Source: Candidatus Woesebacteria bacterium RIFCSPHIGHO2_01_FULL_38_10
GTDB lineage: Bacteria > Patescibacteriota > Microgenomatia > UBA8517
DNA: 57,418 bases
Direction of reading: 5' to 3'
Assembly (NCBI GenBank): GCA_001792215.1
Contig: MGGC01000040.1
Coordinates: forward strand, 3,653-61,070
Both the position numbers and the translations under genes were made by a program. Positions 15,593 to 57,418 of the stretch are shown here, piece after piece. The stretch's first letter is position 1. Every line of letters starts with the position of its first letter. The notes under the pieces were generated by a model. That model was not told the origin of the DNA. It made no database searches and saw only the letters and a program-made list of their open reading frames with translations.

Positions 15593-17614
15593 TTAAATTT
15601 TAATCTTTAGCTCTCCATCCATTCTTAAAAAAAACTCCTCTTGCTTTTTACCAAGCGTAATTAAGTAGGATGGAGCGTCTTTTCCCGGCTGTTTTTGAAT
15701 ATAAAGTTTGTAAACCAGGCTAACTTTAAACGGCAATCTATATCTGGCAATGACTTTTACGATTCCCTGTGGTCTTAATTCAAAAAAACCAGCAAAAACA
15801 GTTTTACCCAACTCCTCATAAGGATTTTCCCGATCCTCAACTCCGGAAAACTCAATCAGCTCGCTGCCTTTGGGAACATAAATTCTTACCCAATTAGGCA
15901 ACAGCGAATTCAACCAGCCGTCGTATTTTTCTGGGTTGTTGTAAGTAATTGTAAGTGTTTTAACTACCGATCCATCTTTTCCGATCTCTACTTCCTGCAA
16001 TACCTCCTCTTTGACATAGAGGTTTGATTTTCTGCCTCCAAGATTTGCATCGTTGATAAAAAGAAAATCGTGCTGATAATTATCCTTTAACTTTCCTGCT
16101 ATCTCAAAGCTCTCGACAGCCGCCTGAGCCTTTTCATCCGTAAGATAAAAAAGCACATGCTTTTCAATCAATGATCTCAAGATAGCCTCAGCTAATTGGG
16201 GGATTTTATCTTTTGGCTGTCCAAGGGCGTTTGCTAAAACAGAATTCATTAAAGGACCAATAATTTTTTTTCTATTATCGTAATTGGGTGGAGCAAAAAC
16301 AATCTTTCCAGGTTCATTTTCACTCCAAACAACAGGCCCTTCAATATCAGCAAAACTTTCAAGTTCATAAATAACCTGCGGACAATTACAGTCTGAAATT
16401 ATCTTTGTACTAAATTCTCCATACCCGGGCACACCGATCGGCCCGATTACATTCAAAATATTCACTAAAAGCTGAGTGTCAACTCCAATCACCCCATCAA
16501 CATTTTTGATCCCCACTTTTTCTGCCTCTTGAGTAAAAAGACGCATTGACTCTTCAAAATCAGGAGACCAGTTTATGTCTCTTAAGCGGTACTTTCTGGA
16601 TAAAATATAAGGTCCTTTTAAATATTTAATTAAGGGCTCGGGCGCAGTCAGGCTTGGGGTATAGTGGGAATCTAAATTATAAATATCACTCGATTCAACA
16701 GCTTCAAATTTAGCGTTTTTTACTTTGGCTATCGAATAAGCTGTAATAAAGCCACCAGTTGGTCTTAATTCCTTATCATTCTGAAAAAGAATTAAATATT
16801 TTCTTTCTGAATCAACACCCAGAAGATAAGAAGACGCTTCAAGCAGGGGTTTACTTTTCTCAAGTAAATCACTGCCCAGAGAAATCAGTTCCATCACCTT
16901 TTCAATCCTTAATCTGATTTTTTTACCGGCCAGTTCTTCTGGGTAGTCAGTAGGATCAATTTCATCAATCTCTACCTTTACTAATTTTACCTTTTCAATC
17001 AATTTATCAGCCTTGGGAACAACCTCAGGGATAGTTTTAATTACAAAATCAAGCCTATCTTGGGCTGTTTCTTGACCGCTTTTTGCCTGTTCGGAATCCT
17101 TAACAAAACCTATTATATCGGAATAGGGTTCTACTACCTCCACAACTATCTTTAATGCTTCCAAACCATATGAAGCGCCGTTAAGCCCATGCTGACCGTC
17201 ATTAATGTATTCACCCAGCCAAGGTACAGATTTCATCCACAAGATGGTTTTATAGGCATTTTTCAGGTTTTGAAAAGATTTTTCAGTGTTTGCAAGTTCT
17301 TGTTTAACTTTATCTATATCTTGTTCCTCAAAAGCAAGTTTGAGGTTCAAAACTGAGGCTCCAACAACCTCTACCTTTTTGAAATAACTGTAAGCCCAAA
17401 TGCCACTTAGGGATATAAAAAAAAGAAATATCACAAGAACAATACCTCCCAGCCTCACCCATTTCTTCTGCCAAATTTTTTTCCTCATCGGCTTCCCTTC
17501 TTTCTCAGGAACATTAAGTTTCCCATCAGGATCAATTTTGGAAATGGGAATAAGAATAGAACCGCCAGGATCTTTAGACCCATCTTCCAGTCTTATCTGA
17601 TCTATATCATCCAT
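15593..17614 (-). CDS. DUF4012-like membrane-anchored extracytoplasmic protein
   Basis: 673 aa. One N-terminal TM (WVRLGGIVLVIFLFFISLSGIWAY). Motif NDKELRPTGGFITAYS, recalled as typical of DUF4012 proteins found beside polysaccharide loci. Confidence 0.6.
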   Translation of the reverse strand: MDDIDQIRLEDGSKDPGGSILIPISKIDPDGKLNVPEKEGKPMRKKIWQKKWVRLGGIVLVIFLFFISLSGIWAYSYFKKVEVVGASVLNLKLAFEEQDIDKVKQELANTEKSFQNLKNAYKTILWMKSVPWLGEYINDGQHGLNGASYGLEALKIVVEVVEPYSDIIGFVKDSEQAKSGQETAQDRLDFVIKTIPEVVPKADKLIEKVKLVKVEIDEIDPTDYPEELAGKKIRLRIEKVMELISLGSDLLEKSKPLLEASSYLLGVDSERKYLILFQNDKELRPTGGFITAYSIAKVKNAKFEAVESSDIYNLDSHYTPSLTAPEPLIKYLKGPYILSRKYRLRDINWSPDFEESMRLFTQEAEKVGIKNVDGVIGVDTQLLVNILNVIGPIGVPGYGEFSTKIISDCNCPQVIYELESFADIEGPVVWSENEPGKIVFAPPNYDNRKKIIGPLMNSVLANALGQPKDKIPQLAEAILRSLIEKHVLFYLTDEKAQAAVESFEIAGKLKDNYQHDFLFINDANLGGRKSNLYVKEEVLQEVEIGKDGSVVKTLTITYNNPEKYDGWLNSLLPNWVRIYVPKGSELIEFSGVEDRENPYEELGKTVFAGFFELRPQGIVKVIARYRLPFKVSLVYKLYIQKQPGKDAPSYLITLGKKQEEFFLRMDGELKIKI

Positions 17615-17635
17615 ACCTAAAATATATTACACCAC

Positions 17636-18289
17636 TCATATCGCCCCTTTTCCCGATATCATTACCCAAGGGGTCTTGAGAAGAATAAGGAAATCCAAAA
17701 AAAGCGATTTTTTCCTAGCATAATACGCATCCATCTCAATTCGTTTATCAAAATTAACTTCACTCCTTCCGGTAACCTGCCAGTATCCTGTTATACCTGG
17801 CCTTACCGTCAACATCTCCTTTACATATTTTTCTGTACCGGGAAACTTTCCCTGCTGCTCACTCAACTCTTCGGGCAAATATGGCCTTGGTCCAACTATG
17901 CTCATCTCCCCTTTTAGTACATTAATAAGTTGAGGAATTTCATCTATTGAGTGTTTCCTAATAAATTTTCCGACTTTGGTAATTCTGGAATCATTGAACG
18001 ATTTGTACTTACCACTCGTACGTTTTTCTATATAGACACTCCTAAATCTAGGATCTATCTTTTCTAATTTATCTGCATCAACCATCATTGATCGGAATTT
18101 GTATAACCTAAAAACTTTCCCGTTTTTACCCAATCTCTTCATATGAACATTGGTTTTTTCAACCAAGATAGGACCTGTTGAAGTTAATTTTATTAGAACT
18201 GCGGAAACTAGTATGATCGGAGAAAAAAAGATCAGAAGTAGAATCGACCCGACTACATCAGTTAGTCTTTTGATAGTTGCGTAAAACAT
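17636..18289 (-). CDS. Polyprenyl-phosphate phosphoglycosyl transferase (small monotopic PGT, WbaP/PglC-like)
   Basis: Motifs KRLTDVVGS, YKFRSM, DEIPQLINVLKGEMSIVGPRP. The track start at 18355 overlaps manC; the ATG at 18289 (MFYATIKRL) fits the family N-terminus. Confidence 0.85.
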   Translation of the reverse strand: MFYATIKRLTDVVGSILLLIFFSPIILVSAVLIKLTSTGPILVEKTNVHMKRLGKNGKVFRLYKFRSMMVDADKLEKIDPRFRSVYIEKRTSGKYKSFNDSRITKVGKFIRKHSIDEIPQLINVLKGEMSIVGPRPYLPEELSEQQGKFPGTEKYVKEMLTVRPGITGYWQVTGRSEVNFDKRIEMDAYYARKKSLFLDFLILLKTPWVMISGKGAI

Positions 18290-18335
18290 ATCCAGGCAGG
18301 CAATTATACAACTATATAACAAACTTGAGCATTCT

Positions 18336-19460
18336 TCAGAGATACTCTTTTTCACTCTTTTGTTTTAGTTGTTCAACAATTTTTTTTACATTTTGGGCCT
18401 TACTCTTAGAGCAGATCAATAAAGCATCGTCCGTATCAACAACAATAATATTATCAACATCGATTATTGCAATGAGCCTTCCGTCTGTATGAATCAGTGC
18501 GTCTGAAGTATCAAGATTAATGACTTCACCACCGGGAGCATCACCATCTATAACAACATTACCGTACTCGTCCTTAGTCAAATTCTTCCAAACCTCATTC
18601 CAATCCCCTATATCCGTCCATTCATAGTCAGCAACAAGCATTAAGAAGTTTTTCGCTTTTTCAGATACTGCGTAATCGACAGAAATCTTTGGCATCAGGT
18701 TGTAATACTTTTCCAACACTTGTTTCTCTTTTTTTGTCCCAATAAATTTGCCTATCATCATCAAATTTTTATATATTTCAGGCTGGTAGTTTGAAAGAGC
18801 TTGCAGAAACGAATCCGCCTTCCAAACATATTGGTTTGCATTCCAGAAATAATTTCCCGAAGAGGTATACCTTTTGGCTTGAGGTAAAGGAGGTTTCTCA
18901 ACAAATTTGTCTAACTTGTAAACAATCTTTCCTTCGACTGTCTTTATTTTCTTTCCCCTTCTGATATGCCCCATACCGGTATGGGGATAACTGGGCCGCA
19001 CCCCGACTGCAACCAAAAAATTCCCCTCGTAGGCCACACAAGATGCGGCGTACATTATTTTTTTATAATTTTTTTCAGGACGGATAAAATGATCAGAAGC
19101 TGCGTTAATTATTACAGCCTGATCATCCTTTTTATAAATATGCAAAGCCCCCAATCCATGAGCCGGGGCTGTATCTCTGCGAGCCGGCTCGACAATAATA
19201 TGATTTTTGGGTACAGACGGAAGAAGGCGTTTTATCTCTATCTCGTATTTTATCGTTGCGGTTGATATAAAAATTCTCTCCCAAGGCAAAAACTTTCTCA
19301 GCCGTTCAATAGTAATCTCAAGAAGAGTTTTATTTCCGAAAAGTTTCAGAAATTGTTTTGGGGTTTTATCTCTTGATCTGGGCCAAAGCCTTGTCCCTCC
19401 ACCACCAGCCATTACTAAAGCGTATAAATGATCTTTATAACTTTTTGCGGACATTTCCAA
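18336..19460 (-). CDS. manC: Mannose-1-phosphate guanylyltransferase-like NDP-sugar pyrophosphorylase
   Basis: 374 aa. N-terminal ALVMAGGGGTRLWPRSRDKTPKQFL. Confidence 0.8.
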   Translation of the reverse strand: MEMSAKSYKDHLYALVMAGGGGTRLWPRSRDKTPKQFLKLFGNKTLLEITIERLRKFLPWERIFISTATIKYEIEIKRLLPSVPKNHIIVEPARRDTAPAHGLGALHIYKKDDQAVIINAASDHFIRPEKNYKKIMYAASCVAYEGNFLVAVGVRPSYPHTGMGHIRRGKKIKTVEGKIVYKLDKFVEKPPLPQAKRYTSSGNYFWNANQYVWKADSFLQALSNYQPEIYKNLMMIGKFIGTKKEKQVLEKYYNLMPKISVDYAVSEKAKNFLMLVADYEWTDIGDWNEVWKNLTKDEYGNVVIDGDAPGGEVINLDTSDALIHTDGRLIAIIDVDNIIVVDTDDALLICSKSKAQNVKKIVEQLKQKSEKEYL

Positions 19461-20631
19461 TAACCTTTAAAAATTCTTTCTTAAACTTTTTTTCTGTAAA
19501 CCTTTTTGCATTTCTAAGTAATTCATTTCTACTAAATTTCAGTTTTTCAAACCGGTTAATTGCAGATATTAAACTTTTTTTATCCTGTTTGTCAAAAAAT
19601 ATACCCGTTTTAGTGTCGATTACAGTATCAAGTGCGCCACCCACTCCGTATGCTATCACCGAACACCCTGCAGCCTGTGCTTCAACAGAAACCAGACCAA
19701 AATCCTCTTCCTGCGGAAAAATTAAAGCGCGCGCATTCTGATAGTAACCTGCGAGTTCGCTATCTGTCAAATTCTTCACAAATTTAATATTTCTGCCTGC
19801 CATCTTTTTTAATCTTCCCTCTTCTTTTCCGGAACCGACAATAATTAACCTATGTCCAAGTTCATTAAGCGCTTCAATCACCAAATCCACTCTTTTATAC
19901 TTCACAAGCCGGGAGACAACCAGATAAAACCCTTTACTTTTACTATCCCTTCTCCTTCTCATTCTTCCCTGATGTGTCAAGGACATTCCACCCTTAGAGT
20001 GGAATAGGTACGACACCTCAGGATTCTGCCGATCTCTATCCACGGAACTATCTCCAAACACAGACCTTTTGAAACTAAGTGGTGGAAATATCAGTTTTAC
20101 CTCCCTGGCGTAATACTTCCTAATTCTTTCTCTAACCGCTAACGAAATTGCAACCATTTCATCCGGTCTTTGGGCAGCAATTAAATCCCAATGTTTAAGA
20201 TAGAAAACCAGCGGTTTTGTTACAGCCCTAAAAACCGCATTTTTAAAATAAAGCTCATAATGGCTCCATAGGTAACGCGTAGGCGTAAGACAGTAGCAAA
20301 CATGTAAAGTTCCCGGTTTTGTAATTACCCCCTTTGCCGCCTCCGAGGTCACAGAAATTACCAAATCATAACCAGAAAAATCAAACGATTCGAAAGCCAA
20401 AGACATCAAAGGCGCCAGTAATTCATGCCTGTCCCGCAGAAATGAAAACTTTTGTAAAAAACTGGGAATTACTTCGGGGAAAACATTCGCCCAAGGAGCT
20501 TTTTCTCGAGAATAGACAGAAGTATAAAGAGGCGCATCTGGAAACATTTCATGAAGCATTAAAAGAACTCTTTCCGCTCCACCCCATTTATTTACCCGAT
20601 CATAAACCAGAGCAACTTTATCATATTGCAT
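19435..20631 (-). CDS. GT4 (group 1) glycosyltransferase carrying a repeat-derived inter-domain insertion
   Basis: 398 aa. Has GGAERV near the N-terminus and the C-terminal EEDFGLVSVEAQAAG motif. The linker DRDRQNPEVSYLFHSKGGMSLTHQGRMRRRRDSKSK is encoded by and around repeat copy B. Confidence 0.8.
   Translation of the reverse strand: MQYDKVALVYDRVNKWGGAERVLLMLHEMFPDAPLYTSVYSREKAPWANVFPEVIPSFLQKFSFLRDRHELLAPLMSLAFESFDFSGYDLVISVTSEAAKGVITKPGTLHVCYCLTPTRYLWSHYELYFKNAVFRAVTKPLVFYLKHWDLIAAQRPDEMVAISLAVRERIRKYYAREVKLIFPPLSFKRSVFGDSSVDRDRQNPEVSYLFHSKGGMSLTHQGRMRRRRDSKSKGFYLVVSRLVKYKRVDLVIEALNELGHRLIIVGSGKEEGRLKKMAGRNIKFVKNLTDSELAGYYQNARALIFPQEEDFGLVSVEAQAAGCSVIAYGVGGALDTVIDTKTGIFFDKQDKKSLISAINRFEKLKFSRNELLRNAKRFTEKKFKKEFLKVIGNVRKKL
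19968..20022. repeat. Hairpin repeat family 2, copy B, inside a coding sequence
   Basis: CCTGATGTGTC...CCACCCttagaGTGG...GACACCTCAGG. The outer arms are complementary with 1 mismatch. It aligns as the reverse complement of 36605..36660. Confidence 0.65.
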
Positions 20632-20643: not shown

Positions 20644-21819
20644 TTATATCTGAGTCCTAACAGGCCTCGGATAGTCGCTTAAGACATTATATATATCTAA
20701 CGTTTGCTTTGCCATTTTTTCCCAGGAATATTTTTTAATAAACTTTTGGCTTTTTTTGATAAGCTCTATGCGCTTGCCTTTTTCCATTCCCAAAGCATCT
20801 TTCATAGCCCCCTCAATTGAATAAAAGTCGTTGGGGTTAAAATACAATGCATTTCCCTTATAAACTTCTTTGAAAGTGGGAATGTTTGAAGCCAAGACTA
20901 AGGTCCCTGCGGCCATTGCCTCTAAACCCTGAAGTCCAAACCCTTCTGATAAAGATGGATAAATAAAGCCGATAGAATTTTGATATAAACTTACCAATTC
21001 TTCATCACTGACAAACCCCAAAAACCTAACAAACTTACCGGCGTTTTCCTCTCTTACCCATTTCTCAATTCTTTTGGAAAAGATATCTTTCGAACCGACA
21101 ATCACAAAACTTGCCCTTTTCACAAATTTTTCATTCAAATTGCTAACCGCCTTAATAACTCTTTTTAAATTCTTATGAGGATACGCATTTCCTGTATAAA
21201 TAAAATAATCTCCTTTTAGTTCATAATCAAATTTTTTGCCTGTCTTTGCCTTCAAATATGTAGGATCATATCCTTCATATATCTGAACTACTTTATCTTT
21301 ATTTAGATTAAAATTTTCAACCAATTCTTTCTTGACCGACTTAGAAGGTGTGATTATTTTCACACTATCTTTCACTGCTTTTCTAAAAATCAATTTATAG
21401 GGTAATCTCTTGAATAAATAAAAGAGAGTGGGTAAATTAGTTGCGCTGATTCCTTGTTTGTGCATGGTTATATCATGAATTGTTACCACGAATCTTTCTT
21501 TGCAAAAGAAAGGTATATTGAAATGAGGAAAATGAACAAGATCAGGATTCTCTGCCCTGAGAATCTTCGGTAAGTAAATTTGTTCTTGGAAAGAGTAATG
21601 CCTGAAGTCAGCCAGGACTTTTTTCCAATTTTTTGGAAGTTTTAGTAAATCCTTATTTAAAAAACGATCAGACTTTACCTGAAAGTATTTCTTTCTAAGA
21701 AGAAGGATATAGTTGTTCTCTTCATCGATCTTACTAATCTCCTTAATTAAATTTATTAGATATCTTCCAATTCCAGAATGCTCTAGCCCATATAATCTCG
21801 CATCAATTAAAATTTTCAT
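20644..21819 (-). CDS. GT4 glycosyltransferase
   Basis: 391 aa. KILIDAR...SGIGRY N-terminus; PSLSEGFGLQGLEAMAAG motif. Confidence 0.8.
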   Translation of the reverse strand: MKILIDARLYGLEHSGIGRYLINLIKEISKIDEENNYILLLRKKYFQVKSDRFLNKDLLKLPKNWKKVLADFRHYSFQEQIYLPKILRAENPDLVHFPHFNIPFFCKERFVVTIHDITMHKQGISATNLPTLFYLFKRLPYKLIFRKAVKDSVKIITPSKSVKKELVENFNLNKDKVVQIYEGYDPTYLKAKTGKKFDYELKGDYFIYTGNAYPHKNLKRVIKAVSNLNEKFVKRASFVIVGSKDIFSKRIEKWVREENAGKFVRFLGFVSDEELVSLYQNSIGFIYPSLSEGFGLQGLEAMAAGTLVLASNIPTFKEVYKGNALYFNPNDFYSIEGAMKDALGMEKGKRIELIKKSQKFIKKYSWEKMAKQTLDIYNVLSDYPRPVRTQI

Positions 21820-21830: not shown

Positions 21831-22751
21831 CTAGCCTGAAATCAGAACTTTAATTATCCGAATAAATTTCAGAGCCTTTACACCTATAAGAACAATAATT
21901 ATCAAGGGAAGGGGGTATTCATTCCAAAGTCTTTTTTTAATAAAAATCTCCATCGAGTTAACTCCTGCCATCCTGTATTTAAGTTTTTCTGAAAATGAAA
22001 CGCTTCTTAACTTCTTGCCGCCCAATGAAGCATTTTTACCCTTGCTTGCACCTTTTAAATGAAGAATAGAGACCAAAGGATAATAAATAATCTTCCAGCC
22101 TTTCTTCTTGATCTTCCAACAAAGATCTATATCTTCGCCATCCAAAAAGTACTCTTCATCAAACCAACCAACCTGATCTAAAACTTTCCTTCTGGTCAAG
22201 AAAAAGGCTCCTTGGATAGCATCAACTTCATGAATTTCATCTTCAGGCATAAAACCGTACCAATATTTTGCCAAAAATTTTGATTTAGGAAAAACCCTAT
22301 CAAGTTTCAAAAAAATATGAATAAAACCGATCCAGGGAGTTATAAAAGATCGCCTGGCATCTTTATCGAGTCTTCCGTCGAGAAGCAGGATCTTACAAGT
22401 CAGAGCACCAATACTTTTGTGTTCATCCAAATACTTAACCACTTTTTTCAAAGTATTCTTCCTAAGCTTTGTATCAGAATTCAAAAACAACACATATTCT
22501 CCCTTACAGTAATCCTTAGCTTCATTGTTACCCTTAGCAAAACCTAAATTTTCCTTATTTTCTATTAAGCTAACCTCGGGAAAATATCTTTTAATCATCT
22601 GACAACTTGCATCAGTTGACCCATTGTCAACAACAATAATTTGGGCTTCAACTTCATCTAGCCTTTTTTGAATGGATAAAAGACAGTTTTTCAAAAGGGC
22701 TTTTGTATTAAAATTTAAAATTATAATTGAAAGTTTGAATTCCCTACCCAT
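21831..22751 (-). CDS. GT2 glycosyltransferase
   Basis: 306 aa. LSIIILNFN, VVDNGSTD, LNSDT, GAFFL, DGEDIDLC. Confidence 0.85.
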   Translation of the reverse strand: MGREFKLSIIILNFNTKALLKNCLLSIQKRLDEVEAQIIVVDNGSTDASCQMIKRYFPEVSLIENKENLGFAKGNNEAKDYCKGEYVLFLNSDTKLRKNTLKKVVKYLDEHKSIGALTCKILLLDGRLDKDARRSFITPWIGFIHIFLKLDRVFPKSKFLAKYWYGFMPEDEIHEVDAIQGAFFLTRRKVLDQVGWFDEEYFLDGEDIDLCWKIKKKGWKIIYYPLVSILHLKGASKGKNASLGGKKLRSVSFSEKLKYRMAGVNSMEIFIKKRLWNEYPLPLIIIVLIGVKALKFIRIIKVLISG

Positions 22752-23943
22752 TTTTTACAAGCTCATCATATAAAGGTTTATGAAGGTTAACTATTGCCTG
22801 CCAATCAAACTTTTCTTTAACAAATTTTCTTCCAGCTTCTCCTATCTTTCTTGCCAACTTTTTTCCCCTGATAATTTTAATTACCGCCTCTGCCAATTCT
22901 TGTGTAGAATCACAAATTAAAGCATGCTTACCGTTTATTAAACCCAACCCCGATACTCCTATTGAAGTAGAGACAACAGGAAGTCCTGCAGCCATAGCTT
23001 CCAATATCTTAAGTCTTGTTCCGCCACCCCCCCTTATTGGAGCAACCATTACAGTTGCAGACAAGTAGGCATCTCTGGCCTCCTTAATTGATTCGGTTAC
23101 CTCTATATCATTTCTTTTAAAGGACAATTGAACAATTTCTATCGGTATCTTTCTGCCTACAATCCAAAGCTTCAATTCTGGTTCATTCGCATGGATCTCA
23201 GGCCAAACCTTATCTATCAACAACTCCACAGCCTCTACATTCTGCAACCACTCGAAGTTTGTAACTCCATACAATACCCTGACTGGATCCTTCTTTTTAA
23301 CCACTTTGGCAGCGTAAAAACTTGTATCTACACCGTTGGGAATTATATCGACTTTAACTGTCGGGATTAACTTTTGCATCACTTTTTTATCTTCATCTGA
23401 TACTGCCACTAATCTATCGGCCTTTCTCCAGTAATATTTTTCCCAAAATCTAAGTTTAACCACATCCAGCATATAAAAAGGTTTAAGAAAAAGAGGAACT
23501 TTTTTATCTACATAACGCTTATAAACTAAATATTCAATTGTCTGCTCAACCAAAATAATCGGGATTTTAGTCTTTGGGATGTGCGGCATAACATAAAAAG
23601 CCTCCGCATGAATCAGGTCGTATTTTTTTCTTTGCAACTCATTTTTTATTGTCTGTCTTTCACTGAAAGAAAAATTTCTGATGACAACCAGAGGGTAAAG
23701 ACCTAATTCCGCCAGGAAAATATTTTTTAAACTCCAGGGTGACTTGGAACGTCTAAACACTCTTACATCTTTACAATACTTTTTAAGATCGGGAATAAAT
23801 TTTTTTTCCGTGTCGTCTTTTATCATCGAAAAAAGAGTTATATCGTGTTTTTTGGACATAAATTTTATTATGTTGTACCAGCGGGTCTGCCCGCCTGAGG
23901 TGTGGGTATTGGGCAAGAAAGGAACGAGCATTAAAATTCTCAT
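22744..23943 (-). CDS. GT4 glycosyltransferase
   Basis: 399 aa. C-terminal GGGTRLKILEAMAAGLPVVST. Confidence 0.8.
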   Translation of the reverse strand: MRILMLVPFLPNTHTSGGQTRWYNIIKFMSKKHDITLFSMIKDDTEKKFIPDLKKYCKDVRVFRRSKSPWSLKNIFLAELGLYPLVVIRNFSFSERQTIKNELQRKKYDLIHAEAFYVMPHIPKTKIPIILVEQTIEYLVYKRYVDKKVPLFLKPFYMLDVVKLRFWEKYYWRKADRLVAVSDEDKKVMQKLIPTVKVDIIPNGVDTSFYAAKVVKKKDPVRVLYGVTNFEWLQNVEAVELLIDKVWPEIHANEPELKLWIVGRKIPIEIVQLSFKRNDIEVTESIKEARDAYLSATVMVAPIRGGGGTRLKILEAMAAGLPVVSTSIGVSGLGLINGKHALICDSTQELAEAVIKIIRGKKLARKIGEAGRKFVKEKFDWQAIVNLHKPLYDELVKNG

Positions 23944-29772: not shown

Positions 29773-30078
29773 ACATATATTTATATAAACTAAGTAGACT
29801 GTGCAAACTGTCTCGAAGCTACCTGAAAAACTTCTCCATCAACAAGCCAATTGTAGACCGTTGAAATGCTTTAGTGCAAGAAAATTTAAAGTATTTTGGG
29901 CATAAAGACATTTTCACAACCTGAGTAATCTTTTTATACTTAACAAACTCGAGTTTGTAATTACAAACGAGAGTTTTTGAATATACACAAGTGCCTTAAG
30001 ATACTGCAAATTCAAGTAAGACAGGTATATTAACTCTCTTTCACGACAGGAAGTTTTTTAGAATCACAAATGTCTTAA

Positions 30079-35512: not shown

Positions 35513-35517
35513 TATAT

Positions 35518-46556: not shown

Positions 46557-47483
46557 TTATTTTCGGGCAACGGCTTTATGCATGGGCCAAAAAAGAGGGC
46601 TTTTGACACATAGGTAGGTAAATAACCTTTTACTCCAGGAAGGTAGAGACTCCAGGACTAGATAAGTATCAAATCTAGTGATATCTGTCTTCTTAAAACC
46701 TGCAACTTTATGAAGATTTTTCAAAGTTGATGCTAAAAAAGAAAGTTCATAACCGAAAGACATGTGTTTACCCTTTAATAAATTAAGATTAACAAATTCA
46801 AAAATTTGTCTGACTACCGGAATGTTTGGTATGTTCCCCCACCTGAATCTGTAAAGAGTTCCCAAGTTAAGGCAGGGCACTGTATTAAATGAAACTCCAC
46901 CTTTTTTTAAAATTCTATAAATTTCCGTTAAAACAACCTTAGTATTCTTAAAGTGTTCAATAGTGCCCCCCCCGTAAACAAAGTCAAAAGAATCGTTTGC
47001 AAACGGCATCTGGGTTATATCACCACAGACAAATAAAGTGTTTTTAATTCCAAATCTTTTGGCAAACTTTTGAGCAATCTTAAGCGCGGAGGTAGAGAAA
47101 TCAATTCCGATAATCATGCTGCCCTTCTTTCCGTAATAAAGTCCCAAATACCCCGGACCGCAGCCAATTTCTAAATAAACGGTGCCCTTTCCTATTTTTT
47201 TTGAGGCGTCAATCTGTTCGACAATTTTGGGTTGATGATTTAATTGATAATCATCCATATCTTTTAAGTATTCCTTAGTTTTTAACTTCTTTTCATATAT
47301 GGCATCCCACTTCTCCATACTCAATTTCACATCATCAGTTATTTCAGGTATTAATACAGGAAAGCCATACTTAAACCCGTACTCCTCGCCACATTTGCCA
47401 CATATGAGTCTCCTTTTTTCTTGTCGAAGGACGAATTTACAAACCGGACAGACCAATATCCTTAATTGACTTTTTGACAGCAT
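46557..47483 (-). CDS. Trm112-like zinc-ribbon + class I SAM methyltransferase fusion
   Basis: 308 aa. N-terminus LRILVCPVCKFVLRQEKRRLICGKCGEEYGFKYGFPVLIPE, then YLEIGCGPGY and FDFVYGGGTIEHF. Confidence 0.8.
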   Translation of the reverse strand: MLSKSQLRILVCPVCKFVLRQEKRRLICGKCGEEYGFKYGFPVLIPEITDDVKLSMEKWDAIYEKKLKTKEYLKDMDDYQLNHQPKIVEQIDASKKIGKGTVYLEIGCGPGYLGLYYGKKGSMIIGIDFSTSALKIAQKFAKRFGIKNTLFVCGDITQMPFANDSFDFVYGGGTIEHFKNTKVVLTEIYRILKKGGVSFNTVPCLNLGTLYRFRWGNIPNIPVVRQIFEFVNLNLLKGKHMSFGYELSFLASTLKNLHKVAGFKKTDITRFDTYLVLESLPSWSKRLFTYLCVKSPLFWPMHKAVARK

Positions 47484-47612: not shown

Positions 47613-49952
47613 TTAACTCGATTCAAACAAATCTGGATGTGTATTTCCTACAAAGTTTCTTCTGTAAAGACCATAAGTTAAAGACAATGCAATTAAAAAA
47701 AGAATCGACCCGGCATAAAAACTCCTGGGAACATATTGCATGACAATAACATGATCGCCTGGCCGATCAATAACAACGCCTTTTACAAGACTGTCTGCCA
47801 TGTAACTGTTCACCTTATTCCCGTTTAAAAAAACTTTCCAATTTCTGTCAAATGTATTGCTGTAAATAAAAAATCCCTTATGATCGGTTCTAAAAATGGA
47901 TTTCATAAAACCCGGTTCTTCAACAAATTCAGAAAACTCAAAACCTGACTTTTTTATATCTCTTATACGATAATCATTTGAGTCTTTAATCACTTTACCA
48001 CCATTTGCTTTGTAGGTCGTTATTAGATCGTCAACATACGTCTGATTACGAATTAGGGGGTCATTGAGAATCAACACATCAAACATCTTTAATTCTTCCA
48101 ATGTATAGTCATCAAGATACGGGCTTTGTCCACTGAATACCGACTGTTCCATCGGAATAAATTCCTCGCTATAGATAATCTTCCTAGCCAGATTAGAGTT
48201 AAATTTGTCTTTCTCTTGTTTTCCGACAATTAAGGACCCATTAGTAACGAAGTAAGGACGATCTCGAGTTTTTAACATCTCAAAAACAAAAACTGGATTT
48301 TCGTTTACGCTTCCGCCCTCGTTTATCACTCTAACTTTCGACACAAACTTGGGGTTATTATAAGTTTCCTGCTCTTTCTCCCAGATAAATAAGTACTTTG
48401 TGTTAAGAATCGAGAATGTTTTGAAATTATTTTCCCAAGGCGTACCTTTACTAATAGTGGAATAGAAATAAGGCGACGTTGGTCTGTAATATGGGCCAAT
48501 TGAATCAAGATTATCCCTATTTACCGACTCATAAGTGTAAAAGTTAAGCCCGGGTGATTCATACCCTAAAATCGCCCTATAAGGATCACTATTGTTGGAT
48601 TTGGACGCTGAGAACAACGTCACGTTCGAACTTGAATATTCTGTGAACTCAGTTTCTTCAATAAAAAACTGCGCTTGGTCAATAAATATACGAAGTGGGG
48701 GAATAATTAGTACAAAAAAAACAATCGTCAATATATTTAAATATCTTATTTTTCTCATCCAGTTGACAAAAAAATTAAGGCCTAAACAAAAAAGTAAGGG
48801 TAAAACGAAATAGACGTTTATTAAGAAACGGATCGTATAATGTGCAGACTTGAAAAAAGGCACAAGGTAATAAAAGAGAGAATAGAAATCAATTGGAATT
48901 GAAGAGCCAAAAGATGCCAACAGTGAAACCAAAAAAACAATAAAAATGGGAAAAGTAATCTTTAGTCTTTTTCGATCAAACAAAGACGCCAAAGAAAAAA
49001 GATAAAGACTAACATGGAAACCTTTAAATATGTTATTGATCTTTCTAGTTGACTCTATCTTAAGAAAAAATTCCTGTGTCAGTTTACTTATTATCGTTTG
49101 ATAATATTTGGGAGTTACATCGGCCTCGGCTGACTCAAGGCTAAGATCTTTTCTTAGTGAATCACTTAAAGATTCTTGTACTGGAAGTAGTTTGGGAGCA
49201 GAAAAAATAAATGCAAAGATTATAAAAGTAACGAACAACTTACTCAGTCCCAACAAATAATTAAGGTTTCTTGTTTTAGAATTGTTAATCAAATTAAACG
49301 CCAAATAAGATAAAAAAAATATTCCTAATGCAACTGCCGCATAAGTTGTATTATATAAAGCCCCACCATGAATCAACATTGAAAAAACAAATCCCAAAAA
49401 CGCTGTGAATATGTACTTTCTTGTTATTAACATTTCTATAAAAAGTAATAAAATTAGTGGAAACCAAGCAATCATAATCAAGTCGGAACGAAAACCGTTT
49501 TGAAATATTAAACTTGTCTCAGTGTTATACAGATAAAAAAAAGAACCAACAGTCGCTACGATTATATTCACTTTTAGTAATTTAGTTAAAAGAAGAAAGA
49601 AAAATGCTCCCAGAAAATAGTGTATAAAAAAGGAGATTCGAGTCGCATAAAGTTGATCCCTAAAAGGGAAATTTATTAAGTAGGTCAAAGGGTAGGTTTG
49701 TGGATATGAAGGATTGCCTATTGCAGAGCTTCCCGACCCAAGTTTATTGTCCCATAACAATATTTTATGTTTTTCTATAAAATATTGTCTTATTTTTGCA
49801 ATAGGATATGTTTCAAACACAATCGACTCACCAATTGTGTATCGAGTATCATCTGTTATCAGCCTTGAATATATAGCCGAAGTCACTATTAGAGCAATAG
49901 AAGCATAAACAAAGTATATCCATAAGTATTTACTAAATTTAAGCAGTTTCAT
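47613..49952 (-). CDS. Giant polytopic membrane protein (YfhO-like architecture), possibly distantly related to the 961- and >1026-aa proteins
   Basis: 779 aa. ~13 hydrophobic segments, ~330-aa soluble domain, C-terminal TM GSILFLIALSLTYGLY. ATGA overlap with the upstream methyltransferase gene. Confidence 0.75.
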   Translation of the reverse strand: MKLLKFSKYLWIYFVYASIALIVTSAIYSRLITDDTRYTIGESIVFETYPIAKIRQYFIEKHKILLWDNKLGSGSSAIGNPSYPQTYPLTYLINFPFRDQLYATRISFFIHYFLGAFFFLLLTKLLKVNIIVATVGSFFYLYNTETSLIFQNGFRSDLIMIAWFPLILLLFIEMLITRKYIFTAFLGFVFSMLIHGGALYNTTYAAVALGIFFLSYLAFNLINNSKTRNLNYLLGLSKLFVTFIIFAFIFSAPKLLPVQESLSDSLRKDLSLESAEADVTPKYYQTIISKLTQEFFLKIESTRKINNIFKGFHVSLYLFSLASLFDRKRLKITFPIFIVFLVSLLASFGSSIPIDFYSLFYYLVPFFKSAHYTIRFLINVYFVLPLLFCLGLNFFVNWMRKIRYLNILTIVFFVLIIPPLRIFIDQAQFFIEETEFTEYSSSNVTLFSASKSNNSDPYRAILGYESPGLNFYTYESVNRDNLDSIGPYYRPTSPYFYSTISKGTPWENNFKTFSILNTKYLFIWEKEQETYNNPKFVSKVRVINEGGSVNENPVFVFEMLKTRDRPYFVTNGSLIVGKQEKDKFNSNLARKIIYSEEFIPMEQSVFSGQSPYLDDYTLEELKMFDVLILNDPLIRNQTYVDDLITTYKANGGKVIKDSNDYRIRDIKKSGFEFSEFVEEPGFMKSIFRTDHKGFFIYSNTFDRNWKVFLNGNKVNSYMADSLVKGVVIDRPGDHVIVMQYVPRSFYAGSILFLIALSLTYGLYRRNFVGNTHPDLFESS

Positions 49953-50716
49953 TTATTTGCTCTTTTATATAATGTCAAACTAGACCCGCATAAAACGACT
50001 CTAATTACGGGAATCTTCTCAACAAAAGCTTCTGATCGTTTCAATAATATTGCAATCCATTTGGGGCAGAAATAAGGAACCGTACCAAAAACATACTGCT
50101 CCACTACCTGATAACCTTCTTCTGAAAACCAATTATTTAAAGTTTTCGTCGAATAGGACTTTTCTTCATGCTGTCTGTGATAAGCAGATGTTTTTTCAAT
50201 TACTTTCAGTATCGGGTTATAGCCATTCGGTTCTAAGACTAATATGTATTCAAAATATCTGCTCAAATTTTTTATTGCTTTTTGAGGGTAATACAAGTGA
50301 TGCAACACTCCCTTCACCAACGCAATATTATAATTACCCTCCTTCTTTAAAAAATCGAGCTCATATATATTATCGACTCTAAATTTAATTAACTTCATAT
50401 ATTTCTTAGGAACCATTTTCCTGGCCCTGATAACAGCTTGTCTTGCGGGATCAACGCCGACAATTCGCTTAAGTTTCGATTGATTAAATATCTCTATCGT
50501 GTATTTCCCATCTCCGCAACCTATATCAATTACACTAATTTTTCCACCAAAGTTTCTCCCTATGCATTCTATAACCTCTTTAGACTGTCTTTGGTTTGCA
50601 ATAAAAGCTGGATAGAGATCTTTATTGGTATAAATATAACTCCCGGTCAAAGTAATATCTTTGTTATAAAAGTCAATATTTTTCTCTGTCCCAAACTTAG
50701 ATTTACTTTTGGCCAT
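49949..50716 (-). CDS. Class I SAM-dependent methyltransferase
   Basis: 255 aa. VIDIGCGDGKYT, VGVDPA, GVLHHL. Confidence 0.8.
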   Translation of the reverse strand: MAKSKSKFGTEKNIDFYNKDITLTGSYIYTNKDLYPAFIANQRQSKEVIECIGRNFGGKISVIDIGCGDGKYTIEIFNQSKLKRIVGVDPARQAVIRARKMVPKKYMKLIKFRVDNIYELDFLKKEGNYNIALVKGVLHHLYYPQKAIKNLSRYFEYILVLEPNGYNPILKVIEKTSAYHRQHEEKSYSTKTLNNWFSEEGYQVVEQYVFGTVPYFCPKWIAILLKRSEAFVEKIPVIRVVLCGSSLTLYKRANK

Positions 50717-50762
50717 ATTAAGGAAATCGACATTCTACCCAAATTCTAAAATCTTACCAGTC

Positions 50763-50953: not shown

Positions 50954-50979
50954 ACCAGTGTCTAATTTAGAATTCTTTT

Positions 50980-52005
50980 TCAATCCTGGTAATTTTCCAA
51001 GCCCCCTCCGACATAACGATAATAGGATAGGCGGGGGTTTTTGAAAATATATTGATTAACTAGACTACCCGGCACTTTTCTTATTTCTGATTGAATACGT
51101 TTTCTTTCTCTTAAGGTGTTATTTAAATTTAGTAAATTTGCTCCTATTGCATGAAGAACAGCAAACCCTTTCTCATAATTACCTTTTGCGACTTCCACAA
51201 AAGTTACTCCAATAAGGGTAAATATATGGATAGGCAAAAGCCACAAAAGAGTTGGTAATTCAAAATTTTTTATAAATGACCTGATTCTGTTGCGGTGACT
51301 TTTAAAAACGGTATCAATATTGTCCCTTTTTTTGTAAGTCGCACCCACAAAATGCTCCACTACCGCTCTAGGTGTATACCAACACTCATAACCTGAAAGC
51401 CACACTCTATGACAAAAATCACTCTCTTCAAAATATGCAAACATATAATCATCCAAAAATCCTGTCTTTTCAATAACTTTTCGACGGATAAGTATACAAG
51501 CCCCCTTACCCGAATAAACTTTCAAGTCAGAATTATACTTTGGATCGTCTGCGTCTTTATAAAGTCCGAAATAATACGGAATGCCAGTTTTAGTCAGATA
51601 TGCGCCAACGTTATCAAGTTTTTTATTATCAGACATAAAGACAAGCTTTGGTTGTACGACTCCCGCCTTTTTGTGGGTTTTGAAAAAATCGACAAGCTTG
51701 TCGATTACTTCTTTATCAAACTTTGTATCTGCATTCAAAAGTAAAATATATTCTCCCTGTACTTTTTTATAAGCCAAGTTGTTACCTTGCGCAAAACCTA
51801 AATTTTCTTTACTTTCAATGAGAGTAAAATTTTTTTTCCTGGTATATTTCTTTAGGGTTTCAAGTGAAGAGTCAGAGGAGGCATTATCGAGAACTATAAC
51901 TTCATAGTTTTTATAAGTCTGGTAAAATATTGATTTAAAACAATCATCAAGAAATTCTTGCTGATTCCAATTAACAATCAATATTGAAACCAATCCTTTT
52001 TTCAT
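50980..52005 (-). CDS. GT2 glycosyltransferase
   Basis: 341 aa. VSILIVNWN, VLDNASSDSS, LNADT, FEESDFC. Confidence 0.85.
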   Translation of the reverse strand: MKKGLVSILIVNWNQQEFLDDCFKSIFYQTYKNYEVIVLDNASSDSSLETLKKYTRKKNFTLIESKENLGFAQGNNLAYKKVQGEYILLLNADTKFDKEVIDKLVDFFKTHKKAGVVQPKLVFMSDNKKLDNVGAYLTKTGIPYYFGLYKDADDPKYNSDLKVYSGKGACILIRRKVIEKTGFLDDYMFAYFEESDFCHRVWLSGYECWYTPRAVVEHFVGATYKKRDNIDTVFKSHRNRIRSFIKNFELPTLLWLLPIHIFTLIGVTFVEVAKGNYEKGFAVLHAIGANLLNLNNTLRERKRIQSEIRKVPGSLVNQYIFKNPRLSYYRYVGGGLENYQD

Positions 52006-53129
52006 TTTAGGAAAGGAAGCAGATTTTCTCTATACATCAAGTTCCAATCAAACTTTTCCACATACTCTTTAGCGTTTTTGCTTAAGGTTTTTATTAGATT
52101 CTTGTTTTTTGAAAACTTCTGCATGGCTTCAAATAGCTGACGCTTACTATTGTAAACATAACCCAACTTATATTTCCGGACGTCTCCAGAAATCTCCGGA
52201 ACGCTAGATATAATAACCGGCATTCCGCAAGCAAGATATTCTTTAACTTTAAGAGGGCTTGCGTACTTAGTCCAACCTTCAGACTCGTTATATGAAGCAA
52301 TACCAACCCCACCGTTCTTTACTAAAAATCTTAGGGCCTTGTCGTGTTCCAATCTTCCTAGAAGATATACCCTATTTTCAAGATTGTTTTCTTTAACAAA
52401 AGTTCTAATTTTTTCTTCCTTGCTTCCTGTTCCCAAAAATGCAAGTTTCACTCTCCTGAAACTTTTAGCTATTTTGCTAAATACATGCAAAAGCTCAATC
52501 ACACCATGGGTTTCAGATAAAGTTCCAAGATAAACAAAGTCGAAGATGATTCTTTTTTTAAGTCTAGGAATAAGACCTAAGTCAACTCCGTTTGGTATCA
52601 CCAACGATTTTCGTTTGTTGAGGCCTAATGAGATTCTTCTTTCTTCTGCTCTTTTAGTATTACTGATAACTAAATCGGAAATTCTTAAGGCTACCAGTTC
52701 AACCATTCTATATACGATATTCATAATAGAATTTTTGAATCTTTCATCAGCATAGTCTGATCCGTAATAAATAACGCGTTTTATCTTCCAACCCTTAAAA
52801 AAAATAGCTGGAAAAGTATCAAAGTTATCAAGGCCAATATAGTTATCAACTTTCCCGCAAGTTGTAGCAATTTCATATATGGTGATCAGTGCATTTCTAA
52901 ATAATCGTACAACCGTTTCTCCCTTTTTCTTGTAATTTTTCACTGTTTTAGATTTTTTCATATTCGAATACTGCTCTACAACCGTTTCTTCCAACTTAGT
53001 TCCAAGCATCGGGTGAAAGACAACTTTTATATATGTGTCAGGAATTGCTACCAAAAAATCCCTAAGATGCTGTCCCGGACCCACAATTTCGCTTACATGT
53101 CCAACCAACAAAGTCTTTTTTGTGTTCAT
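52002..53129 (-). CDS. GT4 glycosyltransferase
   Basis: 375 aa. C-terminal ASPLKVKEYLACGMPVIIS. ATGA overlaps on both sides. Confidence 0.75.
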   Translation of the reverse strand: MNTKKTLLVGHVSEIVGPGQHLRDFLVAIPDTYIKVVFHPMLGTKLEETVVEQYSNMKKSKTVKNYKKKGETVVRLFRNALITIYEIATTCGKVDNYIGLDNFDTFPAIFFKGWKIKRVIYYGSDYADERFKNSIMNIVYRMVELVALRISDLVISNTKRAEERRISLGLNKRKSLVIPNGVDLGLIPRLKKRIIFDFVYLGTLSETHGVIELLHVFSKIAKSFRRVKLAFLGTGSKEEKIRTFVKENNLENRVYLLGRLEHDKALRFLVKNGGVGIASYNESEGWTKYASPLKVKEYLACGMPVIISSVPEISGDVRKYKLGYVYNSKRQLFEAMQKFSKNKNLIKTLSKNAKEYVEKFDWNLMYRENLLPFLK

Positions 53130-57300: not shown

Positions 57301-57418
57301 CATTAAAGAAAAATAGTGTTAAACCTACCAACAATGCATTTATGAGAAAAGACCGTCCCTCAGAAAGGGCGCTTATTGTGAAAAGAGTTATCAAGGGTAA
57401 AGAAACCGCTGCTGAAAA
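54314..57418 (-). CDS. Giant polytopic membrane protein (GT-C-like, DUF3367/AftD-type architecture), 5'-truncated by the window edge
   Basis: The frame stays open from the track start (TTG at 57394) to position 57418, so the N-terminus probably lies outside the window. More than 1026 aa, with multiple TM segments, a ~650-aa soluble domain and a terminal TM ISLVILPIVIFVLYF. Paralogous to the 43445..46330 protein. Confidence 0.8.
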   Translation of the reverse strand, partial: FSAAVSLPLITLFTISALSEGRSFLINALLVGLTLFFFNAGPGIPFYAGLGIVAGFAVSYFTLLRANRKNIFRKIVRALIFSLAALISFIFLNLYWIVPLFLYFSQSFASRVGAAGGVEGAISWSREISKNTSFTNLFRLQGIPDWYDNLEHPYSKTFLYNPLFVFLSFLWPFLAFSSFLFLRKTSSNKDKVYVVFFTLLCLVGIFFAAGSHRPSGIIYDLLLLRVPGFSILRTPFYKFGVIVWFSYSFLIAYTLFHIVNSLKKVRIIFKIQRFLALSGFMLFIAIWSLYNYPYFTGGFFHWSKSYSTMLQVPNYLFDFKKWIDETSGSSKRVLLAPDIDPNTRYEIYDWRYFSLSTIPTILTNKSVVANDAYLKGSEQELVRTLYDDLGFNKNFDIAKYLGIHYILVRKDFSASANGSYSPQKIINSIEDNSKFEKIKEFEKWIVYKFKEQEPYPLFYLSSQNSFLDISMADFNKIVGNPQIELLDSFFITESMLKYELPQKYVTNNVVKGICTLCFPIQTVVETPRMRILPNSRFLYYLEAIREERKEVMFPNPEQHIDYLLGNVLKKQVLIQGILKQKKEPALIIIILEDIYENFAKIAALIYSIPDQQRQNFYINRVSSYYKYNDRNLITWEQSTDSQDLKSKFLDLQWRLASLSIPREKEEIIDKHSFDVNIPFPAEYQIMLYFNKNFVSSYPDSQVITIDQGEVATKVTKTADEWMSFGKIWFEKGTHKIKIPFEETVLLQHSVPSQFDLLSSQSSLTCRDFEMNDLSSDIKYKVSFLYRTEIGEPIIRFLVEQDVDTINLNKRPTYRVNSLLKRDSSWSRFEAEFQPDKYTQKFKLKFCVNSNSIENSLVKVDGLEVIGKSRPDVFFISASERKTPLSQEIKFIRINQTKYLVSIKGNTNTSFLNFGQRFDDGWKLRPVDIKDLEAVFDEKFILGSSYNTEEYGLNPEVNLLDLINRKRDTSELSHFLNNGYNNSWVLEGKETNFIVEYEPQILFYRGALASGISLVILPIVIFVLYFRRKSYAAKN

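Follow-up and report, generated by a model that had tools for sequence, protein, structure and literature searches.

A conserved glycan-assembly locus beside the division and cell wall genes of a Candidatus Woesebacteria bacterium probably encodes a two-stage envelope glycoconjugate pathway

We analyzed a 57,418-bp stretch of DNA from Candidatus Woesebacteria bacterium RIFCSPHIGHO2_01_FULL_38_10, an ultrasmall bacterium from groundwater (contig MGGC01000040.1; GC-content of about 0.36; hereafter the window), in which positions 15593-57418 carry a dense set of genes for glycan assembly. We found that these genes belong to a native locus of at least 47 kb, located directly upstream of the division and cell wall (dcw) and peptidoglycan genes and read in the same direction. 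This locus probably encodes a cell-envelope glycoconjugate supercluster whose two-stage pathway resembles the synthesis of lipomannan (LM), lipoarabinomannan (LAM) and arabinogalactan (AG). Bacteria of the Candidate Phyla Radiation (CPR, or Patescibacteria) have tiny genomes and, to our knowledge, the chemistry of their envelope is essentially unknown. Our literature searches returned no account of this locus, nor of any GT-C enzyme from CPR. The components are all of known enzyme kinds; what is new is that the locus is native and conserved clade-wide, that it extends further than the window, that a structural model reveals a large unnamed family of AftD-like GT-C proteins, and that the DUF4012 protein offers a lead.

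Profile searches against Pfam and NCBIfam assigned glycan functions to 30 of the 33 open reading frames (ORFs) in 15593-57418 (Table 1). The first-pass annotation of this DNA had described a glycan-assembly block, and its ORFs were not reassigned to non-glycan functions by these profiles. The initiating phosphoglycosyl transferase (PGT), the GDP-mannose-type activating enzyme (ManC), the Wzx-like and Wzy- or ligase-like proteins, the DedA/TVP38 protein, the four methyltransferases, the O-acetyltransferase and the amidotransferase that it listed were all recovered, as were the three ArnT/PMT-like GT-C proteins (two by the PMT_2 model and the third marginally). The count of glycosyltransferases (GTs) has to be corrected slightly: six GT4 and seven GT2 are indeed present, but the Dpm1-like enzyme that had been counted apart is one of the seven GT2, which gives 12 plus one instead of 13 plus one. 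Nor are all of these enzymes soluble, three GT2 having a predicted C-terminal transmembrane (TM) helix. The proposed decay of one further GT4 was confirmed with tblastn: an intact GT4 from the same syntenic slot in relatives aligns in at least two frames (49% over 129 aa and 41% over 96 aa; E 4e-45), and the remnant also weakly matches the GT4 at 30079-31176. As reported, all ORFs of 15593-57394 lie on the minus strand except the AsnB gene (38122-40038). The dcw block (1-15590) is also entirely minus-strand, and unidirectionality is thus not specific to the glycan genes.

We infer the order of the steps, the donors, the acceptor and the products of the pathway as follows. In a first stage, on the cytoplasmic face, the small PGT would prime polyprenyl phosphate. 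This protein, 217 aa long according to the gene callers of other assemblies, matches the EPS_sugtrans/WbaP C-terminal domain (E 3e-76; NCBIfam), and the signature SIDEIPQL...VGPRP, with its DE and GPRP motifs, can be read in its sequence. The GT4 and GT2 enzymes would then lengthen the lipid-linked oligosaccharide from nucleotide sugars, including GDP-mannose via ManC, and acetyl and methyl groups may be added at this stage. The product would be flipped by Wzx and then polymerized or transferred by the Wzy_C protein. In a second stage, on the outer face, polyprenyl-phosphate sugars would come from two GT2 enzymes, the Dpm1/ArnC-like one and a GtrB/PgfS-type one encoded outside the window, and up to six GT-C enzymes (the three ArnT/PMT-like proteins and the three AftD-like giants, which carry domains resembling carbohydrate-binding modules [CBMs]) would branch or extend the glycan from those donors. 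The DedA/VTT protein is a possible polyprenyl-phosphate recycling flippase that, in this lineage, may return the carrier lipid. Sugars or precursors would be modified by the methyltransferases, the acetyltransferase and AsnB, although AsnB could equally amidate peptidoglycan, and the DUF4012 protein possibly attaches the polymer to the wall. The locus is modular and may yield more than one product.

The first-pass interpretation is borne out in its essentials. The combination of a polyprenyl-phosphate sugar synthase and many outward-facing GT-C enzymes with PGT, Wzx and Wzy_C proteins had been proposed from the first, and it was strengthened by matches to the dolichyl-phosphate mannose synthase (DPMS) class, by a second, GtrB/PgfS-type homologue and by the GT-C structure of the giants. 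The 250-aa GT2 (36664-37416) matches Pyrococcus DPMS (5mlz; E 4e-18), ArnC (E 8e-15) and GtrB (E 2e-8) in the PDB, as well as the AglJ (E 3e-35), PpgS (E 1e-21), ArnC and dolichyl-P-hexose transferase models of NCBIfam, and it contains a DAD motif. It is the best-conserved GT of the locus, at up to 69% identity and in 34 of 35 orthologous loci (see below). These similarities suggest a putative polyprenyl-phosphate hexose synthase-like enzyme. Just outside the window, a 329-aa GT2 is a full-length homologue of GtrB (5ekp; E 8e-67) and matches the PgfS model (E 2e-63), below its equivalog cut-off.

We further analyzed the three giants, which had been described as GT-C-like. They are paralogous: giant 2 matches giant 1 with blastp (E 3e-5), and a profile of giant 1 homologues (A1) recovers giant 3 (E 2e-29) and giant 2 (E 9e-7). 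These matches span the TM domain at the N-terminus as well as a beta-sandwich and the following TM helix at the C-terminus. About 12-14 TM helices were predicted in the giants. The ORF listed at 54314-57394 with a TTG start is a window-edge artifact, and giant 3 is in reality 1184 aa long (full gene at L007:5262-8816, in an independent assembly that extends past the window). Giant 1 is made of an N-terminal multi-TM domain, an extracytoplasmic part of about 500 aa and a C-terminal TM helix. Its AlphaFold2 model, built from a 64-sequence alignment, is of high quality (pLDDT 92.1; pTM 0.90) and its top Foldseek match is the mycobacterial AftD (6w98; E 3.9e-13; TMq 0.49), followed by STT3, EmbB and AftA (probability 0.93-1.0); the region of about 500 aa matches CBM6/CBM35-like beta-sandwiches. 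An acidic residue after the first TM helix (TM1) is a hallmark position of GT-C enzymes, and all six GT-C candidates have one. In giant 1, D29 directly follows TM1 and is kept in at least 90% of the homologues (n = 64), and D136, D182, R184 and K325 are further invariant charged residues of the family. Giants 2 and 3 present DD and HD motifs after TM1, respectively, and the three PMT_2-like proteins present DE-type motifs: the acidic residues of the 487-aa protein (23940-25403) lie within PIADWHSWRQADT, and the 500-aa protein (32566-34068) carries SLWLDEA.

Membership of the giants in the AftD family proper was considered and rejected. Giant 3 matches the GT-C_AftD model (PF11847) only weakly (E 0.004; 15.7 bits for a cut-off of 26) and giants 1 and 2 do not match it. 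AftD has 16 TM helices, a C-terminal TM bundle, three CBMs and a bound acyl carrier protein (10.1101/2019.12.22.885152), whereas the model of giant 1 shows a single C-terminal TM helix (925-960), rather than five, and fewer beta-sandwich modules. Giant 1 matched no Pfam domain, and PDB sequence searches were negative for giants 1 and 3, for the A1 profile and for two of the PMT_2-type proteins. A word-index search found 69 homologues of giant 1, all of them unnamed hypothetical proteins of Woesebacteria, Daviesbacteria and related CPR; an exhaustive profile search of representatives clustered at 50% identity extended the family to 10,898 members at E <= 1e-3 and 2,239 at E <= 1e-30. The structural model thus points to AftD-like GT-C enzymes of a large unnamed family, distinct from AftD, for which transfer from lipid-linked donors is predicted. 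Two independent, weak sequence signals agree with it: the match of giant 3 to GT-C_AftD and that of giant 1 to the MmpA family, itself reported to be related to the N-terminal domain of AftD (PMC8698533).

The giants might alternatively be non-catalytic scaffolds, or deliver lipids or glycolipids as members of the AftD/MmpA superfamily, in which case the GT-C capacity of the locus has been over-counted. The only sequence-profile match of giant 1 is indeed to MmpA (NCBIfam; E 3e-12), under the cut-off, and neither giant 1 nor giant 3 scores above the threshold of any Pfam GT-C model. MmpA, which delivers trehalose lipids, is reported to be homologous to the N-terminal domain of AftD and to have no recognizable catalytic motifs (PMC8698533). 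We regard this explanation as quite unlikely: the Asp after TM1 is nearly invariant and accompanied by the other invariant charged residues, the top fold matches are active GT-C enzymes, the CBM-like modules are attached as in AftD, and polyprenyl-phosphate-sugar synthases are encoded alongside.

We then examined the conservation of the locus. Giant 1 has homologues in 80 representative genomes from the Woese-, Davies-, Ames-, Levy- and Gottesmanbacteria, and tblastn searches with the window proteins revealed a collinear cassette in these relatives. Its order is [GT2]n - (giant 3-like) - giant 1 - Wzx - GT2 - (methyltransferase) - (AsnB, on the opposite strand) - methyltransferase - Dpm1-like GT2 - GT4 - GT2 - GT-C - GT-C, followed by GT4 - GT4 (decayed here) - acetyltransferase - 177-aa protein - GT2 - Wzy_C - GT-C - GT4 - GT2 - GT4. 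We counted genes in the 35 orthologous loci for which 9 kb or more of sequence follows downstream, all of which are collinear. Wzx was found downstream of the giant in 33 of the 35, and the other genes were nearly as constant: the GT2 of the 40849 type (32/35), the methyltransferase of the 37362 type (31/35), the Dpm1-like GT2 (34/35), the GT4 of the 35518 type (32/35) and the GT2 of the 34074 type (32/35). AsnB occupies the same place and orientation in 10 of the 35. The junction with the dcw genes (GT4-ManC-PGT-DUF4012-RecO...MraZ-RsmH-FtsL-FtsI) is also kept in another species of Woesebacteria.

The locus does not differ from its surroundings in composition: its GC-content is 0.360 relative to 0.379 in the dcw genes (at third codon positions, respectively, 0.329 and 0.315), and the correlation of codon usage between the two (r = 0.93) equals that between the two halves of the dcw genes. 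These results bear on the view that the block is a horizontally acquired, strain-variable island (it had been called an island in the first-pass annotation) or a chimera of several loci. Several genes are indeed absent from relatives, namely DedA, giant 2 with two methyltransferases, the 4-TM protein and, in the neighborhoods examined, the pyridoxal phosphate (PLP)-dependent decarboxylase and the short-chain dehydrogenase/reductase (SDR) of the upstream extension. One GT4 is decayed, short contigs break within the locus, and two assemblies share their upstream end. However, composition and codon usage are indistinguishable from those of the adjacent dcw genes, no tRNA genes were detected in the window and no integrase or transposase domains in its ORFs (Pfam scans), and the cassettes are collinear in dozens of genomes of the five groups. 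Moreover, the window is 100% identical to two contigs of the European Nucleotide Archive (ENA) and 99.9% identical to NCBI MGHD01000022.1 (GCA_001793025.1), and at least five independent assemblies present the same gene order at 99.9-100% identity. The agreement of long independent contigs (45-74 kb) excludes a chimera. We consequently rejected both explanations, which together appear very improbable, and we conclude that the locus is a native and conserved part of the chromosome across Microgenomates.

The closest likeness, together with that to the three-component systems described next, is to LM/LAM and AG synthesis (the PimA/B GT4, Ppm1, MptA-D, Emb and AftA-D). The same two-stage logic is found, with cytoplasmic GT-A and GT-B enzymes using nucleotide sugars such as GDP-mannose and, after flipping, several outside GT-C enzymes using polyprenyl-phosphate sugars from a Dpm1-like GT2; the best structural match of giant 1 is AftD, CBM-like extracytoplasmic modules included. 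In contrast, the phylum is CPR, no protein scores above the threshold of an AftD, Emb or Mpt model of Pfam, a single C-terminal TM helix is found in the giants where AftD has five, the decaprenylphosphoryl-arabinose pathway (UbiA/DprE1) was not seen, enzymes of a phosphatidylinositol anchor were not identified here, and the locus contains a PGT/Wzx/Wzy_C set.

Other systems share parts of this design. Three-component systems (GtrA/GtrB/GtrC; ArnC/ArnE-F/ArnT; CsbB/GtcA/YfhO; pentofuranose systems, PMC11127046) also combine a polyprenyl-phosphate GT2 and a GT-C that faces outward. The GT2 upstream of the window is homologous to GtrB over its full length, giant 3 is followed by a small 4-TM protein, and the giants have the YfhO/PTPS_related style of architecture (TM domain, large loop and terminal TM helix), but no homology of the 4-TM protein to GtrA or ArnE/F was detected, and the window has six GT-C candidates instead of one, embedded in a much larger assembly locus. 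Wzx/Wzy loci for capsule, exopolysaccharide (EPS) or O-antigen (Streptococcus pneumoniae cps; Lactococcus lactis eps of pNZ4000) likewise combine co-directional PGT, GT2/GT4, Wzx, Wzy_C and acetyltransferase genes. They differ in possessing CpsC/D (Wzz and tyrosine kinase), the CpsB phosphatase and a recognizable LytR-CpsA-Psr (LCP) protein, all absent here, where DUF4012 holds the position beside the PGT; and the present locus is conserved across a superphylum-level clade instead of varying with serotype. Finally, in the Pgf system of Streptococcus mutans (PgfS/PgfM1/PgfE/PgfM2), the counterpart of the upstream GT2 is PgfS, and here too the GT2 gene lies near those of an NAD-dependent epimerase and of a large, polytopic membrane protein. 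The match is under the equivalog cut-off, the sequences of the membrane partners are unrelated and no gene for a target adhesin is present.

This last resemblance is part of the case for protein O-glycosylation, according to which all or much of the locus would serve to glycosylate S-layer proteins, pilins or other surface proteins. The Wzy_C protein would then be an O-oligosaccharyltransferase (O-OTase) of the PglL/WsaB type, the PMT/TMEM260-like GT-C proteins would be O-mannosyltransferases fed with polyprenyl-phosphate-mannose, and the GtrB/PgfS-type GT2, the epimerase and a giant would act like the streptococcal Pgf machinery. The Wzy_C domain is common to polymerases, WaaL ligases and PglL/WsaB O-OTases. 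In addition, PMT, PMT_2 and TMEM260-like profiles match the three smaller GT-C proteins, the best NCBIfam match of the 250-aa GT2 is AglJ, an enzyme of an S-layer glycoprotein pathway, and the upstream GT2 matches PgfS with an epimerase nearby. Pili and sortases are prominent in CPR (PMC6744442). On the other hand, neither PglL_A nor any other O-OTase-specific profile of Pfam or NCBIfam was matched, the locus lacks a gene for a target protein, and 13 GTs, six GT-C proteins and the CBM-like domains of the giants better fit the elaboration of a polysaccharide. We therefore consider protein O-glycosylation improbable for all or much of the locus, and a serious rival for part of it in the case of S-layer proteins or pilins.

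The DUF4012 protein, encoded beside the PGT, surpasses the GTs by far in conservation: its homologues number more than 2,200, of which the best 120 are all 55-66% identical, and the family presents many invariant Arg, Lys and Asp residues. Its AlphaFold2 model (pLDDT 81.6) shows an N-terminal TM helix, a long helical bundle, an alpha/beta domain and a C-terminal beta-sandwich. The top Foldseek match is 3pe5 (E 1e-3), which, like 3owq, we take to be an LCP-family protein; the LCP entries of the Cps2A type (3tep, 3tfl, 3tel, 2xxq and 4de8) are marginal matches (E 0.018-0.06; probability 0.93-0.98; TMt 0.33-0.35). Sequence comparisons did not reproduce this likeness. PF03816 was not matched by any of 61 family members at E <= 10, the DUF4012 profile retrieved no LCP entry among PDB sequences, and a regex search across 97 loci found no LCP genes. 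In addition, hhalign aligned DUF4012 with LCP over the TM helix only (probability 32%), a weak negative given the shallow LCP alignment, which was drawn from a divergent lactococcal subfamily (pNZ4000). DUF4012 is enriched in CPR and Gram-positive bacteria and has been linked to a bifidobacterial locus for capsular polysaccharide and EPS (Méheust et al. 2019, PMC6744442). We consider this protein a candidate extracytoplasmic enzyme, and the structural model makes an LCP-like wall ligase a possible though doubtful role, a lead that profile comparison does not support. One bold version of the two-stage pathway builds on it: Microgenomates would assemble an essential wall heteroglycan or lipoglycan by an actinobacteria-like route, in which the clade-specific family of AftD-like giants elongates and branches the polymer outside the membrane and DUF4012 is a non-canonical LCP-type phosphotransferase that couples the lipid-linked polymer to peptidoglycan. 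This version is speculative and we think it unlikely, but if true it would open the CPR envelope to molecular study for the first time.

Several observations weigh against the two-stage pathway. Some of its parts are not shared: DedA has no homologue in the 80 related loci, and giant 2 with its flanking methyltransferases and the 117-aa 4-TM protein are absent from the neighborhoods of relatives. In loci of the Levy- and Gottesmanbacteria type (L062-L064), the giants directly abut the acetyltransferase/Wzy_C module; this separation of modules indicates that the supercluster is modular and that it may make more than one product. One member of the AftD/MmpA superfamily, MmpA, may be non-catalytic (PMC8698533), the third PMT_2-type protein (500 aa) scores barely above the cut-off, the 250-aa Dpm1-like GT2 has no TM helix, and, judging from sequence, the Wzy_C protein could be a polymerase, a ligase or an O-OTase, roles that cannot be separated in this way. 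Components expected of related systems were not detected either, namely a GtrA-family flippase, a chain-length regulator (Wzz, GNVR and tyrosine-kinase profiles; ORFs of the window and of the 5.9-kb extension described below), and a canonical LCP protein or ABC exporter in the window. Finally, a promoter and terminator scan yielded motifs no better than those of shuffled sequence.

That a superphylum-level clade conserves a glycan locus of at least 47 kb beside its genes for division and the wall suggests a central role of the product at the cell surface and perhaps in host attachment. The locus offers testable candidates: a polyprenyl-phosphate-hexose synthase, six GT-C proteins including the unannotated AftD-like family, and DUF4012 for wall attachment. 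The logic of LM, LAM and AG synthesis may not be confined to Actinobacteria.

Table 1. Genes of the glycan block within the window (bit scores from profile searches; SAM, S-adenosylmethionine)
Feature	Position	Strand	Evidence or remark
DUF4012 protein, 673 aa	15593..17614	-	Pfam DUF4012, 78 bits
Small monotopic PGT, predicted to initiate on polyprenyl phosphate	17636..18355	-	Bac_transf, 204.6 bits
ManC, mannose-1-phosphate guanylyltransferase (GDP-mannose)	18336..19460	-	NTP_transferase and ManC_GMP_beta-helix; GMP_PMI N-terminal part, E 9e-88
GT4	19435..20631	-	Glycos_transf_1, 97 bits
GT4	20644..21819	-	Glycos_transf_1, 101 bits, and Glyco_transf_4
GT2 with C-terminal TM helix (282-300)	21831..22751	-	Glycos_transf_2, 83.5 bits
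GT4	22744..23943	-	Glyco_trans_1_4, 82.6 bits
ArnT/PMT-like GT-C, 487 aa	23940..25403	-	PMT_2, 56 bits; PMT, 31.5 bits
Wzy_C-domain polytopic protein	25387..26826	-	Wzy_C, 45.1 bits (cut-off 31.7)
GT2	26741..27655	-	Glycos_transf_2, 97 bits
177-aa bitopic membrane protein	27648..28181	-	Conserved beside acetyltransferase in a few relatives; homologues in L037, L051, L050
Hexapeptide-repeat acetyltransferase, WcaF-like	28188..28829	-	Hexapep, 67.8 bits; WcaF family, E 1.4e-30
Decayed GT4 pseudogene (frameshifts and stops)	28959..29796 (approx.)	-	ORF-free stretch 28830-30078
GT4	30079..31176	-	Glycos_transf_1, 86 bits
PMT_2-type GT-C, 468 aa	31160..32566	-	PMT_2, 36 bits (cut-off 26.1)
PMT_2/TMEM260-like GT-C, 500 aa	32566..34068	-	TMEM260-like, 24.7 bits (cut-off 24.2); PMT_2, 22.9 bits
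GT2	34074..34820	-	Glycos_transf_2, 74.6 bits
DedA/VTT-domain membrane protein	34817..35512	-	VTT_dom, 63.8 bits
GT4	35518..36585	-	Glyco_trans_1_4, 80 bits
Dpm1/ArnC/AglJ-like GT2, 250 aa	36664..37416	-	DPMS, ArnC, GtrB, AglJ and PpgS matches
SAM-dependent methyltransferase	37362..38060	-	Methyltransf_23/11/12
AsnB-type glutamine-dependent amidotransferase	38122..40038	+	Asn_synthase, 314.6 bits, and GATase_7; sole plus-strand gene
SAM-dependent methyltransferase	40071..40868	-	Methyltransf_11, 87.7 bits
GT2	40849..41730	-	Glycos_transf_2, 52.9 bits
Wzx-type flippase (MOP superfamily)	41706..43016	-	Polysacc_synt, 96.5 bits (cut-off 28.2); about 11 TM helices
Giant 1, 961 aa, AftD-like GT-C	43445..46330	-	Predicted structure; without Pfam domain
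SAM-dependent methyltransferase	46557..47483	-	Methyltransf_11, 78 bits
Giant 2, 779 aa	47613..49952	-	PTPS_related, 32.4 bits; distant paralogue of giant 1
SAM-dependent methyltransferase	49949..50716	-	Methyltransf_31/23
GT2 with C-terminal TM helix	50980..52005	-	Glycos_transf_2, 96.6 bits
GT4	52002..53129	-	Glycos_transf_1, 61.6 bits
GT2 with C-terminal TM helix	53126..53980	-	Glycos_transf_2, 80.5 bits
117-aa protein, about 4 TM helices	53977..54330	-	TM prediction; immediately follows giant 3
Giant 3, residues ~150-1184 of 1184 aa	54314..57418	-	AftD-like GT-C paralogue; N-terminus past window end

Two small membrane proteins of the block were matched by no profile: the 177-aa protein found nothing in Pfam (even at E <= 10) or NCBIfam, and the 117-aa 4-TM protein found nothing in either database even at E <= 10. 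By size and topology, with homology support absent, the latter is a possible GtrA/ArnE-F-like flippase. Beyond giant 3, the locus continues for about 5.9 kb past the window end with genes for an NAD-dependent epimerase/dehydratase, a LysA-like PLP decarboxylase, a fifth methyltransferase, a GT2 and an SDR. The decarboxylase (L007:2975-4285) resembles the exosortase/PEP-CTERM EPS family TIGR03099. Similarly, the best NCBIfam match of AsnB by E-value is TIGR03108, the EPS-associated XrtA/PEP-CTERM amidotransferase (E 2e-161), under the model cut-off. No exosortase was seen.

Intergenic gaps of notable size are limited to three in the locus, at 43017-43444 (428 bp), 46331-46556 (226 bp) and 50717-50979 (263 bp); ORFs of 55-60 aa were called inside them in other assemblies, and an Rfam scan of the whole window matched no family. 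The NCBI (71 kb) and ERZ4903072 (74 kb) assemblies share an end a short way upstream of the SDR gene (L007:1-350 and L008:1-350), and numerous shorter contigs break within the glycan locus, which may reflect strain-level heterogeneity or a repeat. Many third-party records of metagenome-assembled genomes that carry this clearly CPR/Microgenomates locus (L017, L019, L021-L023 and others) are titled "uncultured Gammaproteobacteria bacterium", and these titles are probably wrong. In the related Woesebacteria species that keeps the dcw junction, three consecutive genes with PEP-utilizers domains and two small ORFs are inserted among the GT4 genes of the locus (L095:3481-6994), which suggests a lineage-specific modification module. 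Between RecO and DUF2130, the same relative encodes a histidine kinase together with a response regulator (L095:12553-14649), a pair that is absent from the window.

The dcw side of the window (1-15590) encodes a MurB-MurD fusion, MurC, a Mur ligase-NTP-transferase fusion, MurA, FtsI, an FtsL-like protein, RsmH, MraZ, a class-II tRNA synthetase, DUF2130 and RecO. The first fusion is an 846-aa ORF (339-2879, minus strand) that joins MurB (FAD_binding_4 and MurB_C) to a MurD-like ligase (MurD-like_N, Mur_ligase_M and Mur_ligase_C). The second (4322-6649, minus strand; 775 aa) is a ligase of the MurE/F type with a C-terminal NTP_transferase domain, called as a 761-aa fusion in independent assemblies. 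The ORF of MurA (6621-8213, minus strand) overlaps that of FtsI (7930-9642, minus strand) by 284 bp; other assemblies call a MurA of 430 aa, indicating that the long start is an artifact of mechanical ORF listing. In MGHD01000022.1, about 100 bp (L001:18862-18960) do not align with the window around 8654-8754, in the FtsI region, with 20 mismatches beyond, and FtsI and MurA are found only as fragments, while the window is 100% identical to the ENA contigs. Finally, DUF2130 (13920-15023, minus strand) carries an N-terminal zinc-ribbon-like motif and lies between the tRNA synthetase and RecO, the same place that it occupies in relatives.

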